Origin: Opitutales bacterium
GTDB lineage: Bacteria; Verrucomicrobiota; Verrucomicrobiia; Opitutales; Coraliomargaritaceae
DNA: 32,159 nt
Direction of reading: 5' to 3'
Assembly (NCBI GenBank): GCA_049598495.1
Contig: JBMYNR010000007.1
Coordinates: forward strand, 1-32,159
The notes under the pieces are model-generated. The model ran no database searches. It was not told the origin of the DNA and saw nothing but the letters and a program-made list of their open reading frames with translations. This document shows positions 19,748 to 29,132 of this stretch, piece after piece. A program made the position numbers and the translations under genes. Position 1 is the first letter of the stretch. Each line of letters begins with the position of its first letter.

Positions 19748-20730
19748 GTCAGTGGCTTGGTAATGTTGGAGTCCCGCCTTTAGGCGGCAGTGCGCCCGTG
19801 GCCAAACAGACTCGACCGCCTAAAGGCGGAACTCCAACACTTTACATCCTCTCACTGGCTCTCGCCAGCGTCCTACCCGCTTCGCTTCGAGCGATCTCCC
19901 CGGACGAGTTGGCAACAATCCGGACGGAACTCAGAGAGCCGATAACCCTAAAGTTAAGTAACCGAAACACAGTAATCGGAAACCCGGTTAATGTATCCAA
20001 CGATTCTATACAGATGGCTTCCGCGGAGGGTGCCGGCGAGATTGTCTTTACATTCCGCGCCGAGGAGATCCGCCAGATCGACGTGCCCGGGGAAAGCTAC
20101 AAGACACTTGCTCTCGAATGGATGCGGAGCGGACAAACCGAAGATGCCTTGGAATTGATGGGGCTTCTCTACAAGCAACGGGGGCCACTACTCCCCCTTA
20201 TGCCGGCTAGTGAGTCGCATTTTTTTGTCTATTACGCGGACCTTGTCCTGGATTCGCCCAAGCCGGCGCGCGCCATCGCGATCACGGAGAACCTGCGGCC
20301 GCAGATCGAGAACCCGGAGGCACTCCGTATGCTCGATGATGCCCTCCTTGAAAGCTACCAAACACTCGAACTCTACGAGCAAGCCGCCCCACTGGCTGAA
20401 AAATGGCTGGAGGAGCGCAACCCCTATGGCGAGAGTGCCCTCGGCTACTACGTGCTTGCGGCCTCTAAACTGCGTTCTGAAGCGTATGATGAAGCATTGG
20501 AATTCAGCCTAGAGCCAATTGTCTTCTCCTCCCCCATTCCGACTGACAAATTAGCGCACTGCTACGCGGTCGCCGTATCGGCGGCTCTAGGGTTGCGCGA
20601 ACGGGCATACGCCACCACCCTCTATCGCGAAATGGTGGAACGCGGCCTCGCTTGGCCAGCCGATGACAGGACTCTCGAACCTTACTTCAACAAATTAAAA
20701 GAATACATCGAACAACATGAACCCTCTTAA
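19744..20730 (+). CDS. Exported hypothetical protein, helical/TPR-like
   Basis: GTGA overlap with the upstream stop, GGAGG at 19732-19736, hydrophobic signal LYILSLALASVLPASLRA; overlaps the exbB-like start. Confidence 0.75.
   Translation: MSQWLGNVGVPPLGGSAPVAKQTRPPKGGTPTLYILSLALASVLPASLRAISPDELATIRTELREPITLKLSNRNTVIGNPVNVSNDSIQMASAEGAGEIVFTFRAEEIRQIDVPGESYKTLALEWMRSGQTEDALELMGLLYKQRGPLLPLMPASESHFFVYYADLVLDSPKPARAIAITENLRPQIENPEALRMLDDALLESYQTLELYEQAAPLAEKWLEERNPYGESALGYYVLAASKLRSEAYDEALEFSLEPIVFSSPIPTDKLAHCYAVAVSAALGLRERAYATTLYREMVERGLAWPADDRTLEPYFNKLKEYIEQHEPS
19764..19839. repeat. REP-like inverted doublet inside a coding region
   Basis: 24-bp arms at 19764-19787 and 19816-19839 (23/24 complementary), each containing the palindrome CCGCCT-NN-AGGCGG. 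Confidence 0.85.
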
Positions 20731-24944: not shown

Positions 24945-25580
24945 ATGCTTCCAAAATCTGCAGTGATCGTTCCCGCAGCCTTCGCTCTCGCAATTGGCCT
25001 GCTGCTGAGCGGTTGCGATTCGGCGCAGCCGACGAGTTATCGCATCCCCAAGGAAGAACGGACGGTCGCCATGCCCGCCCCTGTCGATACAGAGAAGCAG
25101 GCCCTGGCAGGTGCAGCAGGCATGCGCATCCTTCCTGGGATGCAGGAAGCGGCCGACGAGGCCGGTAGAGTCAGCTACACCGTCCCCGAAGGCTGGGAGG
25201 AGTTCCCTGCAAGCGGTATTCGCAAAGCCAATCTCAAAGTCGCTGACGAAAACGGAAGCGCTGAGCTAACCGTCTTAGCCTTTCCTGGCGATGTGGGCGG
25301 CACACTGGCTAACATCAACCGATGGCGTGGACAGATAGGACTCAGGGAAGCGACGGCGAAAGATCTACCTGCGTTTACCGAGAACTACACGATTTCCAAA
25401 CACAAAGGCCTCTACGTCCGTCTCGAAGGGAGCACGCAGAGTATCCTCGGCGGGCTACTTCCGTTTCATGGCTACACTTGGTTCTTCAAACTCCAAGGCA
25501 CAAGTATGACAGTCCTTACCAACGAAGCGAAGATGAAGTCCTTCCTCGATTCTATCGAACTGGAAGACAATCACCACTAA
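24945..25580 (+). CDS. Hypothetical lipoprotein heading the cytochrome c biogenesis cluster
   Basis: Lipobox LSG-C; PEGW and GGTLANINRWRGQIGL segments; stop lies 1 bp before the next ATG. Confidence 0.75.
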   Translation: MLPKSAVIVPAAFALAIGLLLSGCDSAQPTSYRIPKEERTVAMPAPVDTEKQALAGAAGMRILPGMQEAADEAGRVSYTVPEGWEEFPASGIRKANLKVADENGSAELTVLAFPGDVGGTLANINRWRGQIGLREATAKDLPAFTENYTISKHKGLYVRLEGSTQSILGGLLPFHGYTWFFKLQGTSMTVLTNEAKMKSFLDSIELEDNHH

Positions 25581-25581
25581 G

Positions 25582-26754
25582 ATGAAGTCGCTTTTCCAGT
25601 TCTTCAGCTCACTCAAGCTGACGGTGGTGCTGCTGACCCTTTCATTGGCACTGGTCTTTTTCGGAACACTCGACCAGGTGCACTTCGGTATTTGGCAGAC
25701 GCAGAAACTCTACTTTGAAAGTTTTCTTGTCGTTTGGGCTTACCCGGAACAGTGGCTCCTCCACGACAAACTCTTTTGGGTGCATCTACCCATGCCGGGC
25801 GGCTATCTTTTGGGCGGCCTGCTCTTCGTCAACCTGCTGGCGGCCCACTTCACACGCTTTAAGATGACCTGGAGGAAGAGTGGCATCTTCCTTGTTCACT
25901 TCGGTCTCGTCATGCTTCTCGTCAGCGAGTTGATGACCGATCTGCTTGCGGTGGAAAGCCAGATGCCTGTCGACGAGGGTGGACGAAGCAACTACTCGAC
26001 CAAATTCCGCTCGAACGAGCTCGTCTTTATCGACCGCAGCCATCCCGACTACGATCAGGTGCACGCCATCCCCACGGAGCGACTCATACCGGGCAAGACC
26101 GTCGACGTTCCGGATACGCCGCTACAGATTCGCACCGTCAGCTACTACCCGAACGCCGAAGTCGGGCGCTCAACCGAGGGTCTTAATGCCGGAAGTCCGG
26201 CCACCCGCGGGGCAGCGGTGAAGATGGGCATTGTAATCACCCCACAGGAGGAGAGTTTCGCCGAAGACGACATCAACACGGCGACCGCGTATGTGGAAGT
26301 CCTTGGGCCGGAGGGCTCGCTCGGGGTCTGGCTCGTCTCCAATGTCATCGATGAACGCTTTCCTCCTCAGTTGGTGCAGCTTGGGGACAGCGAGTGGGAG
26401 CTGGCGCTGCGTTTCACGCGGATCTACTACCCGTTCGAGATCGAACTGATCGACTTCGCACACGACAAGTATCCAGGAACCGAAATTCCATTCAATTTCT
26501 CCAGCGAAGTTCATGTGCATCACAACGATCAGACAAAAGACCAGAAAGCACTCATCTACATGAACCATCCGCTACGCTACGAAGGCTATACCTTCTACCA
26601 AGCCTCCTTTGCTAACCAAGACAAGACCTCCATCTTTCAGGTCGTTCGCAACCCCGGCTGGCTCCTGCCCTACCTTAGCGTCCTACTGATGGGCCTCGGC
26701 ATGTGTGTTCAATTCGGCATGCACTTCTTTAACTTTCTGGGTAAGCGCCGATAA
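25582..26754 (+). CDS. ResB/Ccs1-like cytochrome c biogenesis protein (system II)
   Basis: FFSSLKLTV N-terminus, TM histidine in LVHFG, large periplasmic region ending MNHPLRYEGYTFYQAS, C-terminal TM segment. Confidence 0.85.
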   Translation: MKSLFQFFSSLKLTVVLLTLSLALVFFGTLDQVHFGIWQTQKLYFESFLVVWAYPEQWLLHDKLFWVHLPMPGGYLLGGLLFVNLLAAHFTRFKMTWRKSGIFLVHFGLVMLLVSELMTDLLAVESQMPVDEGGRSNYSTKFRSNELVFIDRSHPDYDQVHAIPTERLIPGKTVDVPDTPLQIRTVSYYPNAEVGRSTEGLNAGSPATRGAAVKMGIVITPQEESFAEDDINTATAYVEVLGPEGSLGVWLVSNVIDERFPPQLVQLGDSEWELALRFTRIYYPFEIELIDFAHDKYPGTEIPFNFSSEVHVHHNDQTKDQKALIYMNHPLRYEGYTFYQASFANQDKTSIFQVVRNPGWLLPYLSVLLMGLGMCVQFGMHFFNFLGKRR

Positions 26755-26774
26755 CCAGGCTCTGTATTTCTTGA

Positions 26775-27222
26775 AACTACGAAAACCGCGAAATACGCGA
26801 AACATGAGCACAAACATTGTTTATAAAGACGAAAGCTATCGAATCATTGGCGCTGCATTCGAGGTTTACAAAGACAAAGGATGTGGCTTTCTCGAAGCGG
26901 TTTATCAAGAGTGCTTGGCAATCGAGTTAGAGGTCCAATCAATTCCTGCGGTAGAAAAATCTCCACTTAGGCTTGAATATAAAGGCCGCGAGCTAAAGCA
27001 AAAGTATGAACCCGATTTTCTCTGCTTTGGCAAAATCGTAGTCGAAATCAAAGCAGTGAAATCTCTAATCGACGAACACCGGGCGCAAGTGGTAAACTAC
27101 CTCAAAGCTACCGGAATGGAACTGGGTATACTTATCAACTTTGGCCATTTTCCAAAGGTTCAGCACGAAAGGTTTGTTAATCAGCCGTCGTAGTTTTCGC
27201 GTGTTTCGCGTGTTTCGTAGTT
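26775..27222. mobile_element. Candidate inverted-repeat-bounded GxxExxY cassette
   Basis: Arms at 26775-26802 and 27195-27222 (25/28 complementary) each lie 1 bp from the start or stop codon of the enclosed gene. Mobility is inferred. Confidence 0.6.
26804..27193 (+). CDS. GxxExxY protein (PD-(D/E)XK nuclease-like), 129 aa
   Basis: GFLEAVY motif, PD-FLCFGKIVV-EIK catalytic-type motif, QVVNYLKATG.ELGILINFG tail. Confidence 0.92.
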   Translation: MSTNIVYKDESYRIIGAAFEVYKDKGCGFLEAVYQECLAIELEVQSIPAVEKSPLRLEYKGRELKQKYEPDFLCFGKIVVEIKAVKSLIDEHRAQVVNYLKATGMELGILINFGHFPKVQHERFVNQPS

Positions 27223-27233
27223 AATCCCTCTCA

Positions 27234-29132
27234 ATGAAGAAGCTCATCTACAGTATCGTATTCGGCTTGGCGGCTCTCATCCTGGTCGAGGGGTTCCGGT
27301 CCACCTCCGTCCAATCTGAGTTCGACGTGGAGAGCTTCTCTGAGCTACCTGTTCAAGTCGGTGGCCGGATCAAACCACTCGATTCCGTGGCGCGAAACAC
27401 CCTCTTGATTCTGTCAGCCCGACAGAAAGTGGTGACCCCGGAAGGCGTCAGCCTATCCCCGATTGAGTGGTTCATGGATCTAACCATGCGGCCGGAACTG
27501 GCGGACACTTACCGCGTCTTCAAAATCGAGTTTCCCGATGATCTCGGCCTCGCGGGCCTAGCCCAGCAGGGCCAGCGTTACTATTCCTATAACGATTTGC
27601 TACCCTTCTTCGACGAGATCCGGGAAGCGTTTTCCAAAATCGATCCTGAACCGCAGAAACGGAATGCTTATGAGCGCCAAATCTCCGATTTAAATGAGGG
27701 GCTCATGCGCTACCATCGGGTCATGCACTCGCTTCATCCAATTGGCGGTAGCGAACGCCTCGACCGACTCGTCGACGAATACCAGAGCTATCAGGCCACC
27801 ATCCGGCCGGGCATGGTTGAACTGCGCAGGCAGCAAGCGGGCGAGGAGTTCGACGGAGCCGTTCTCAATCGCTTCATCGCCTTTGCGGATGACTACCTAA
27901 AACTCTCACAAACTGCCCTCCTTCGCGTGGTGCCCCCACCCCCGCCCGTTGACCCGATGGAGGACTGGAAAAACATCGGGCTCGAGCTACTCGACCTAAT
28001 GAAGGGCGACCCCCTCAGTCCCTACGTAACGACCTACGCCTCTCTCACGATGGCCTACCGAACAGACGACACGGAGACATTTAACAAAGAGGTTAGTGAG
28101 CTGCGCCAGCGCTTTATCGCGGACTTTCCGCAGGACATCGACCGCGTGCACTACGAACGCATCTTCAACGCCTTCCAGCCTTTCTACATCTCAATACTTC
28201 TCTATGTCCTTATCTTCCTTGCCGTCTGCATCTCTTGGCTCCGCTGGCCGGAGGAACTGACAGGGGCCGCATTCTGGGTGCTTATATTGGCATTCGCCAT
28301 ACACACCTTCGGCCTGCTCTCACGAATGTATATTCAAGGCCGCCCTCCGGTTACAAATCTCTACTCCTCCGCCGTCTTCGTGGGCTGGGGCGCCGTTCTC
28401 CTCGGCGTTTTCATTGAGCGCTTTTTCAAAAACGGCATCGGTGCTGCGATGGCTTCAATCGTCGGCATCTCTACCTTGATTATCGCCCACCATCTCGCGA
28501 TGAGTGGTGACACCCTGGAAATGATGCGGGCCGTATTGGATTCGAATTTCTGGTTGGCGACGCATGTGATCATTATCACCTTCGGCTATTCAGCTATGTT
28601 CCTCGCCGGTGCGCTCGCCATCATCTTTGCGATCTTTGGCCTTTTCAATCGTCGGTTCTCGAAGGAGCAAGCACGCTCTCTGAGCGCCATGGTCTATGGG
28701 ATCACTGCCTTTGGCGTGCTCTTCAGTCTTGTGGGCACCATTTTGGGTGGCATCTGGGCGGACCAAAGCTGGGGTCGCTTTTGGGGCTGGGATCCCAAGG
28801 AGAACGGCGCCCTCATGATTGTTTTGATGGGTGCGATCTACCTACACGCCCGCTGGGGCGGAATCTGCCGGGAACGTGGGCTCATGGTGCTTGCTATCTG
28901 CGGCAACATCGTCACCGCTTGGTCCTGGTTCGGCACAAATCTCCTCGGGGTGGGGCTGCATTCATACGGCTTTACCGACAGCGGATTTTTCTGGCTCGTC
29001 GGATTCTGGATGAGTCAAGCTGTGTTCATCGCATCCTGCCTACTTCCTTGGAAATACTGGCGCAGTGAATTTGGGAAATCGAACGACCGGAAAGAAGGTA
29101 AGCGTATCCTCATCGCGGCAGAAGACGTGTAG
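27234..29132 (+). CDS. ccsA: Cytochrome c biogenesis protein CcsA/ResC with a large N-terminal periplasmic domain
   Basis: WWD motif WADQSWGRFWGWDPKE, WLATHV, GLHSYG, and N-terminal GGRIKPLDS. Confidence 0.92.
   Translation: MKKLIYSIVFGLAALILVEGFRSTSVQSEFDVESFSELPVQVGGRIKPLDSVARNTLLILSARQKVVTPEGVSLSPIEWFMDLTMRPELADTYRVFKIEFPDDLGLAGLAQQGQRYYSYNDLLPFFDEIREAFSKIDPEPQKRNAYERQISDLNEGLMRYHRVMHSLHPIGGSERLDRLVDEYQSYQATIRPGMVELRRQQAGEEFDGAVLNRFIAFADDYLKLSQTALLRVVPPPPPVDPMEDWKNIGLELLDLMKGDPLSPYVTTYASLTMAYRTDDTETFNKEVSELRQRFIADFPQDIDRVHYERIFNAFQPFYISILLYVLIFLAVCISWLRWPEELTGAAFWVLILAFAIHTFGLLSRMYIQGRPPVTNLYSSAVFVGWGAVLLGVFIERFFKNGIGAAMASIVGISTLIIAHHLAMSGDTLEMMRAVLDSNFWLATHVIIITFGYSAMFLAGALAIIFAIFGLFNRRFSKEQARSLSAMVYGITAFGVLFSLVGTILGGIWADQSWGRFWGWDPKENGALMIVLMGAIYLHARWGGICRERGLMVLAICGNIVTAWSWFGTNLLGVGLHSYGFTDSGFFWLVGFWMSQAVFIASCLLPWKYWRSEFGKSNDRKEGKRILIAAEDV

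Follow-up and report, generated by a model that had tools for sequence, protein, structure and literature searches.

The window analysed here is the whole stretch of 32,159 nucleotides of contig JBMYNR010000007.1, from an Opitutales bacterium. Between a resB-like gene and a ccsA-type gene of the window, the segment 26775-27222 is one self-contained cassette, in which a promoterless GxxExxY nuclease gene is bounded by two inverted arrays of three short words each. The layout of the junction is as follows.

25582..26754, forward strand: resB-like gene, the co-oriented upstream neighbour (PF05140 ResB, E 3.3e-18)
26775..26802, forward strand: left arm of inverted repeat I1 (28 nt, 89% complementary), with three words 9 nt apart, ACTACGAAA, CGCGAAA, and CGCGAAA
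26804..27193, forward strand: GxxExxY open reading frame (ORF) of 129 aa, with ATG at 26804 and TAG at 27191-27193
27195..27222, forward strand: right arm, with the inverted words TTTCGCG, TTTCGCG, and TTTCGTAGT
27234..29132, forward strand: ccsA/resC-type cytochrome c assembly gene (Cytochrom_C_asm), the downstream neighbour (PF01578, E 1.2e-25)

The outermost word of the left arm is unlike the two inner words, and CGAAA recurs at arm offsets 5, 14, and 23, which gives a 9-nt period. Pairing between the arms extends over 25 of 28 positions; a T/C among the three mismatches corresponds to a U-G pair in the sense RNA. The arms fit closely around the gene, a single C at 26803 separating the left arm from the ATG and a single T at 27194 separating the stop codon from the right arm. 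The ccsA-type gene, which scores 132 bits against TIGR03144, under that model's cut-off, starts 11 nt 3′ of the right arm. The ungapped inverted-repeat score of the cassette is 20.5, whereas 294 long ORFs of the same genome, used as a null, have a mean score of 7.6, a 99th percentile of 10.5, and a maximum of 14. It follows that the inverted repeat is beyond chance.

The composition of the cassette is foreign relative to that of its neighbours: the ORF has a GC content of 43.1% and a third-position GC content (GC3) of 45.4%, versus 55.2/71.6% for resB and 55.7/69.2% for ccsA. No GGAG-type Shine-Dalgarno sequence is present in the 28 nt before the ATG, and a promoter scan found no sigma-70-like promoter for the gene. 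A search of Rfam gave nothing relevant, with two chance-level matches only (E 0.3 and 4.2), and the cassette lies outside the 23S rRNA, between two protein genes. An earlier reading made from the DNA letters, referred to below as the original prediction, had described the coordinates, arm pairing, 9-nt period, flanking genes, AT-rich ORF, and absent Shine-Dalgarno sequence, all of which are present in the sequence. It had also reported neither a target duplication nor a DDE or HUH transposase, in agreement with the domain searches and inspection of the flanks. That is, the only family matched by the ORF among Pfam and NCBIfam models is PF13366/TIGR04256, with no transposase domain, and no target duplication is seen at the cassette. 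Directly 5′ of resB, and co-oriented with it, is a further ORF (24948-25580) without a Pfam or NCBIfam match.

The cassette protein matches PF13366 (PDDEXK_3; E 3.1e-41) and TIGR04256 (GxxExxY; E 1.8e-41), with scores of 140.8 bits (cut-off 22) and 141.1 bits (cut-off 35), so that both cut-offs are passed. In an alignment of 62 family members, no variation is seen at residues E31, D71, K83, and Y99 and almost none at E81 and Q95; the G..E..Y motif (G28, E31, and Y34) and the D...E.K core (D71, E81, and K83) are conserved throughout. Residues Q95 and Y99 occupy what we take to be the Q..Y positions of a RecB-family motif. The AlphaFold2 (AF2) model of the protein has a mean predicted local distance difference test (pLDDT) value of 95, and its best structural matches are all PD-(D/E)XK nucleases. 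The top Protein Data Bank (PDB) match found by Foldseek is Cas4 SSO0001 (4ic1; E 7.2e-5, template modelling (TM) score 0.57 normalised to the query). Further top matches are lambda exonuclease, LHK-Exo, and the AdnA nuclease domain, and Hjc and the splicing endonucleases score lower. Because of the conserved catalytic residues and the structural matches of the model, we read the 129-residue protein as a minimal RecB/Cas4-like metal-dependent PD-(D/E)XK nuclease with an active site predicted to be intact. A profile search with the cassette protein gave no sequence match among PDB chains, and none was obtained from PHROGs.

Membership of Cas4 itself was considered and rejected. The protein resembles the PADLOC Cas4 model weakly (E 0.0039) and over residues 76-109 only, the three cysteines are scattered without a C-terminal triad, and the neighbours are resB and ccsA, with no cas context. 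A four-cysteine cluster is a typical feature of Cas4. As for function, the accessible text of a 2012 survey of PD-(D/E)XK proteins gives that of PF13366 as "Unknown", with multiple transfers, and one paper, in its accessible text, places a PDDEXK_3 domain beside a reverse transcriptase.

Conserved words and a proposed mechanism

Arms were scored across the family as ungapped inverted repeats between flanks of 110-120 nt, and a locus with a score of at least 13 was called armed; the score admits no gaps and reaches only 110 nt outward, and the armed counts are, therefore, lower bounds. In the genome of the window (1.75 Mb in 73 contigs), 13 PF13366 matches fall into 10 loci, of which six are intact and four are broken. 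Eight of the 10 loci are armed, versus 1 of the 294 long ORFs. Elsewhere, armed loci number 40 of 76 in reference genomes, 47 of 69 on metagenome contigs, and 16 of 27 in relatives, and shuffled right flanks reached the threshold in 1 of 380, 1 of 345, and 0 of 135 trials, respectively (2 of 860 in total). A null that combined left and right flanks of different loci proved unsuitable because the loci share arm words (maximum score 30), and was replaced by the shuffled flanks. Each of 10 named phyla contains at least one armed locus, and the arms lie 0-20 nt from the ORF at most loci. These counts show that arms belong to the family as a whole and exceed chance by far. The original prediction had proposed that GxxExxY genes be collected and their flanking arms counted, and had named a lack of arms at other GxxExxY genes as the outcome that would speak against it; arms are common across the loci, shuffles are near zero, and a lack of arms is clearly not what is found.

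In the subfamily closest to the cassette, the arm words are CACGAAA, CGCGAAA, or CACGGAA. Of 82 steps from word to word, 71 measure 9 nt; a 3+3 unit layout is seen in 15 of 24 parsed loci, and the outermost unit usually starts with AACC(A/G)C. Other subfamilies have other words, namely CGCAGAG, CGCAAAG, CACGGAG, CACGAAT, CGCTAAT, CGTGAAT, and GCAGGAAA, several of which coexist in the genome of the window. Protein identity and arm similarity are correlated among 54 cassettes (Spearman 0.385, permutation p 0.001). In 26 loci, the sequence beyond the AACC(R)C termini contained no direct repeats, only T-rich/A-rich flanks. A screen of all fetched loci for a 23S sarcin-ricin-loop motif gave no match, and no cassette was seen in an rRNA context. 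A classical insertion sequence or transposon was rejected as a description of the cassette, there being no transposase domain and no direct repeats outside the arms in the 26 loci, and the paralogues being 31-59% identical.

Are the words kept as sequence, or are the arms kept as a stem? Six orthologous cassettes, whose history is described below, have an arm-to-arm agreement of 120 of 133 at word positions and 20 of 41 at spacer positions. The words ACTACGAAA and CGCGAAA are identical in orthologues whose host ResB proteins share only 70-78% identity, and conservation is strictest in the right arm. For the 1-3-nt spacers, the match between spacers of the same rank (49 of 77) is no better than that between spacers of other rank (38 of 57). 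Mismatches between arms tell a similar story. In the reference genomes, 102 mismatches comprise 19 of sense G.U type, 28 of A.C type, which wobble in the antisense strand only, and 55 transversions. The 133 mismatches of the metagenome loci comprise 27, 36, and 70, respectively, so that 46 G.U-type mismatches face 64 of A.C type when the two sets are pooled. Since an enrichment of G.U would be expected of a stem selected in the sense RNA, and none is seen, selection for such a stem is not indicated. The tests indicate that selection preserves the words as sequence; the spacers drift without compensation. The arms are complementary largely because the same words stand at both ends in inverted order.

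Our preferred reading, to which we assign a probability of about one half, is that the cassette is a promoterless selfish unit whose nuclease recognises the unit's own terminal words, that cutting copies or moves the unit, and that the RNA stem is a by-product. The words would be the DNA binding sites of the cassette's own nuclease, which would bind both ends symmetrically and cut at or near the distinct outermost word. Cutting would occasionally copy or move the cassette and would also yield ORF-less hairpins, as is thought for the REP-associated tyrosine transposase (RAYT) acting on repetitive extragenic palindromes (REPs) and the hairpins that they form (REPINs). The gene would be expressed by operon read-through. 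The RNA stem would be an unavoidable consequence of the inverted arrays, probably cut by RNase III, as in rRNA intervening sequences (IVSs), and not itself selected. Binding, cutting, and movement are steps that we infer; the patterns of conservation, the fold, the history, and the orientation are seen in the data. The original prediction that the protein recognises its iterated boxes fits the finding that the words are conserved as sequence and differ between subfamilies.

The orientation of the genes bears on how they may be expressed. Relative to both neighbours, the 76 reference loci are 22 ++, 4 --, 6 +-, and 5 -+, with no assignment for 39, and the 69 metagenome loci are 27 ++, 2 --, and 1 and 1 mixed, with no assignment for 38. 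Nine of the 10 GxxExxY loci in the genome of the window are ++. Because of the sense orientation and the missing promoter, the cassette gene is likely to be expressed by read-through from the host operon. One contig of a seawater RNA library that joins resB, the left arm, and the start of the ORF is a weak hint to the same effect.

The same preference for the sense orientation is expected of an alternative, IVS-like account, in which the arms are kept as a stem in the transcript of the ccs operon. An RNase III cut would either free the ORF as an mRNA or dispose of it, leaving the host cistrons functional, and the protein need not touch the arms at all. We consider this account unlikely. In the minimum free energy (MFE) fold of the RNA, the terminal stem is indeed closed (-143.3 kcal/mol, z -3.94, with 0 of 100 shuffles folding as well), yet pairing is not kept where the words do not force it, that is, at the spacer positions of the orthologues, and G.U is not in excess over A.C. 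An RNase III gene is present in the genome, it is plausible by analogy that the enzyme cuts the stem as a consequence of the inverted arrays, and a Coxiella 23S IVS of the same build is excised by RNase III (PMC4990558, accessible text). The left arm is also purine-rich on the sense strand at 33 of 40 and 12 of 16 armed loci. A pure pairing constraint, however, does not predict words that are conserved across phyla and across hosts whose ResB proteins have diverged to the extent given above. One contig from a seawater RNA library (26597-26838) runs uncut from resB across the left arm into the start of the ORF, and a second covers 26943-27126; such contigs are blind to RNA ends and cleavage, and the read-through contig is a weak hint against this account. 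The original prediction had also allowed for an mRNA stem that loops out or excises the ORF. Selection for such a stem is not supported: the spacers agree at just under half of their positions, the compensatory changes that it had proposed to count are not seen in the drifting spacers, G.U is not enriched, and nothing shows cleavage of the RNA.

History of the cassette and of its family

The resB–ccsA junction was looked at in 40 relatives, 36 of which have resB orthologues; 29 loci were fetched, and 28 of these include the junction. A GxxExxY gene is missing there from all 28 informative relatives, whose spacers measure 1-184 nt, versus 482 nt in the genome of the window. In five relatives, the spacer is 2 nt. 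ORF-less remnants with ACTACGAA termini are found at the junction in two relatives. L022, of the same coded genus, retains the flank on the upstream side together with a degenerate arm pair of ACTACGAA type around a loop of ~35 nt, and L034, of another genus, keeps the ACTAC...CGTAGTT ends. The discrete inserted unit of the original prediction is thus well matched by the foreign composition, the gene-free junctions of relatives, and the two remnants.

The cassette is also present between resB and ccsA at four loci found by a metagenome scan with the protein (L154, L155, L157, and L161) and in one reference genome (L044). These five copies have 69-81% identity with the GxxExxY protein of the window and 70-78% identity with its ResB; as they were found by a cassette-based search, they are uninformative on the frequency of the cassette. 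A recent insertion unique to the genome of the window, one of the histories considered, was overturned by the metagenome loci. In a ResB tree of 33 rows, which omits L028 (no junction) and L032 (partial ResB only), the loci with a junction cassette are scattered through a family-level clade (support 99/97). A GxxExxY tree of 40 rows places the six junction copies in one clade with a Shimodaira–Hasegawa-like approximate likelihood ratio test (SH-aLRT) value of 88; of 500 label shuffles, 0 were as clustered. L044 and L155 pair as sisters in this tree and in the ResB tree. Sister to the junction copies is a clade of ACTACGA-type cassettes from other phyla and other gene contexts.

Because the six junction proteins form one clade, the simplest reading is that there was one old insertion into the resB–ccsA spacer in an ancestor of the coded family f1, followed by vertical descent in at least six lineages and many independent losses. 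Purifying selection on both gene and words during that descent would likewise be the simplest reading of the sequences. Alternatively, the cassette may have been transferred together with its flanks by homologous recombination. The original prediction had asked for orthologous loci with a precise empty site, and the comparison supplies gene-free junctions in the 28 relatives, not a site that is empty to the nucleotide. It had also held that stable synteny of the gene across the family would tell against its reading, and such synteny is found in part, the same junction being occupied in five other lineages and the gene being missing in all 28 informative relatives. In three seawater DNA runs, contigs bridge both junctions of the cassette, with no joint that skips it and no empty-site allele. 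Among the seawater runs are some with only 55-78% of the sequence words of the locus. A marine habitat of the host is our reading from the seawater runs only.

Other hairpins are found in the same place. The resB–ccsA spacers of L021, L032, L033, L017, and L020 hold unrelated hairpins of 100-184 nt, that of L021 being a hairpin of CGCAGAG words and that of L032 a near-perfect palindrome of 25 nt. Since unrelated hairpins occupy the spacers of relatives, the junction is a hot spot for hairpin insertion. In L161, a second ACTACGAAT.. array (1893-2032), in direct orientation, lies between the stop codon and the true right arm and has the look of a left arm that was partly duplicated within the cassette.

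Vertical inheritance at one junction, with ORF, active site, and words intact over the divergence of the ResB hosts, is also what one would expect of a domesticated host gene. In that account, the cassette is immobile, the nuclease has a cellular task such as repair or defence, and, through the words as operators, it regulates its own gene or the ccs operon. The genome of the window has no near-identical copies of the cassette, as the account would have it, and REPIN/RAYT systems offer a precedent for long vertical persistence. We judge domestication improbable, since the family is patchy. Of 41 related genomes, 22 have PF13366; the matches number 0-13 per genome, with none in several genomes of 99-100% completeness and only 3 in the complete genome G007. 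From the junction, the cassette has been lost in most lineages. Four of the 10 loci in the genome of the window are broken, and in another genome (G016, about 90% complete), all nine matches are fragments or stop-bearing, so that loss of the whole family seems to be under way in this lineage. The foreign composition and the sister clade in other phyla and other gene contexts also speak against domestication.

Gene-less arrays, for which the original prediction had recommended a search, do exist, and differ in number between words. The word ACCGCTNAT belongs to another resident cassette (C46:4442-4849; C numbers denote contigs of this genome) and forms 28 ORF-less arrays, versus 0 in five shuffled genomes; for the word of the resB–ccsA cassette they are few. 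Examples of the ACCGCTNAT arrays and hairpins are C19:3361-3515, C6:56640-56793, and the contig ends of C28, C32, C47, and C4. Several are within 80 nt of contig ends and are, therefore, probably assembly breakers.

A genome-wide scan for inverted repeats, used in place of a lenient tandem-repeat scan (Tandem Repeats Finder, TRF) whose 1433 arrays were too noisy, found periodic arms around a second kind of gene as well, the four-helix-bundle genes of 23S-IVS type, outside rRNA. The genome has nine matches to PF05635 (23S_rRNA_IVP), with flank scores of 35.5, 17, 16, 11.5, 11.5, 11, 11, 9, and 7; three of the nine score 16-35.5, and seven are above the 99th percentile of the null. PF05635 loci enclosed by periodic inverted arrays are as follows.

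C31:5131-5604: arms of 38 nt made of a 12-nt unit, with one mismatch
C42:11507-11924: periodic inverted arrays
C60:209-725: periodic inverted arrays

Two unrelated ORF families sharing one design in one genome could mean that the arms are a generic hairpin vehicle, moved in trans by another enzyme, with GxxExxY and four-helix-bundle genes as interchangeable passengers. ORF-less periodic hairpins and the different hairpins that fill the same spacer in L021 and L032 would suit such a vehicle. We nevertheless regard it as quite improbable, given that the words track the protein subfamily and are not shuffled, that the arms hug the ORF (1 nt from ATG and stop here, and within the short distance given above at most loci), and that no candidate trans-acting enzyme was identified.

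Some further repeats were seen in the course of the scans. The window has, at 19764-19839, a palindromic hairpin with 24-nt arms, TGTTGGAGTCCCGCCTTTAGGCGG and its complement, which belongs to a REP-like family, GACGCCCTAAAGGGCG...GTTGGAG, found in at least 10 places in the genome. A unit of 95 nt, consisting of AGTTTGTTGCTGTC, 67 nt, and GACAGCAACAAACT, has 14 copies in the genome, e.g., C1:35380-35474, none of them in the window. An inverted-repeat family, GGTTCATCGTCAAAGT..GGGGAA, encloses 400-468 nt without a convincing ORF at C1:97109-97618, C2:83195-83702, C4:25939-26385, and C51:3582-4040; these units may be decayed cassettes or non-coding RNA.

Objections, wider meaning, and known systems

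Several observations weigh against the selfish cassette that we favour. The strongest is that a four-helix-bundle protein without a known catalytic site shares the design, and this is an argument that a nuclease is not required for it. No nucleotide-precise empty site was found at the junction. The six intact GxxExxY paralogues in the genome of the window are only 31-59% identical, and hence there has been no recent burst of transposition there. The cassette's own word, searched as CRCGAAN arrays, has 18 matches (1-6 in shuffles), of which 8 are found inside three cassettes. Covariation of words and proteins would also be produced by the shared descent of gene and arms. Finally, whole 9-nt units are slightly more alike when of the same rank (389 of 441) than when of different rank (678 of 810), and, given this difference, there may be some register-specific symmetry or pairing constraint.

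It is tempting to extend the argument to the family at large, in a proposal that we put forward tentatively and rate as possible, with doubt outweighing belief. GxxExxY proteins would be sequence-specific nucleases that read their own 9-nt-phased heptamer words, and would drive a pan-bacterial class of hairpin-armed mini-elements in operons, vertically persistent like REPIN-RAYT systems and shedding gene-less hairpins; the classical ORF-bearing rRNA IVSs would make up its four-helix-bundle branch. If so, the source of IVSs and of their unexplained heptamer repeats would be accounted for. If the words are indeed the nuclease's own sites, they would represent a new pairing of nuclease and site, in which the site is short, modular, specific to the subfamily, and readable from genomes. 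Many "REP-like" intergenic hairpins outside Proteobacteria would then be explained as well, and the puzzle of IVSs would be tied to a general type of cassette that inserts between operon genes without disruption. The resB–ccsA locus is a good test case: at a single junction, the six orthologues and the two remnants provide a natural series of intact, gutted, and lost cassettes. Full-text searches, with subscription journals outside their coverage, found no description of such gene-plus-repeat cassettes in the literature.

Three known systems invite comparison. The first is the Cas4/RecB nucleases (PDB 4ic1, 4r5q; lambda exonuclease 1avq), which give the best structural matches and have the E, D, ExK, and Q..Y positions in common with the cassette protein. 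Unlike Cas4, the cassette protein has only 129 residues and is without the four-cysteine cluster and a CRISPR context.

The second is the REP/REPIN–RAYT system (PMC3116915, PMC3337134, bioRxiv 10.1101/2021.07.10.451892), to which there are several likenesses. Each has a single gene between inverted copies of short repeats on which its product putatively acts, as well as gene-less hairpin copies elsewhere in the genome (here, the ACCGCTNAT arrays), and each shows long vertical persistence. The differences are also clear. The enzyme here is of the PD-(D/E)XK type, whereas RAYT is an HUH/Y1 transposase, and phased arrays of three words stand here in place of single REP palindromes. Moreover, one genome has ten divergent paralogues with different words, in contrast to one RAYT, and the gene-less copies of the resB–ccsA cassette are few.

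The third, and the closest in build, is the 23S rRNA IVS. The accessible text of the Coxiella burnetii study (PMC4990558) describes a helix-45 IVS of 428-444 nt that has a terminal stem of 28 bp, with an S23p ORF in its loop and the ATG preceded by three tandem heptamers; RNase III cuts out this IVS, and the origin of rRNA IVSs is called unclear. On that description, the likeness extends to a unit of ~430-450 nt, a terminal-repeat stem of ~28 bp around a small ORF, tandem short repeats right before the ATG (heptamers there, words 9 nt apart here), a weak or absent Shine-Dalgarno sequence, and an ORF that decays in some lineages. The resB–ccsA cassette differs in lying in an mRNA spacer and in having a PD-(D/E)XK nuclease ORF instead of S23p/PF05635. 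Selection here appears to act on the words rather than on the stem, while excision by RNase III is, in the same accessible text, a feature of the IVS. By analogy, we take the resB–ccsA cassette to be the same kind of object as the Coxiella IVS, carrying a different ORF and residing in an mRNA.

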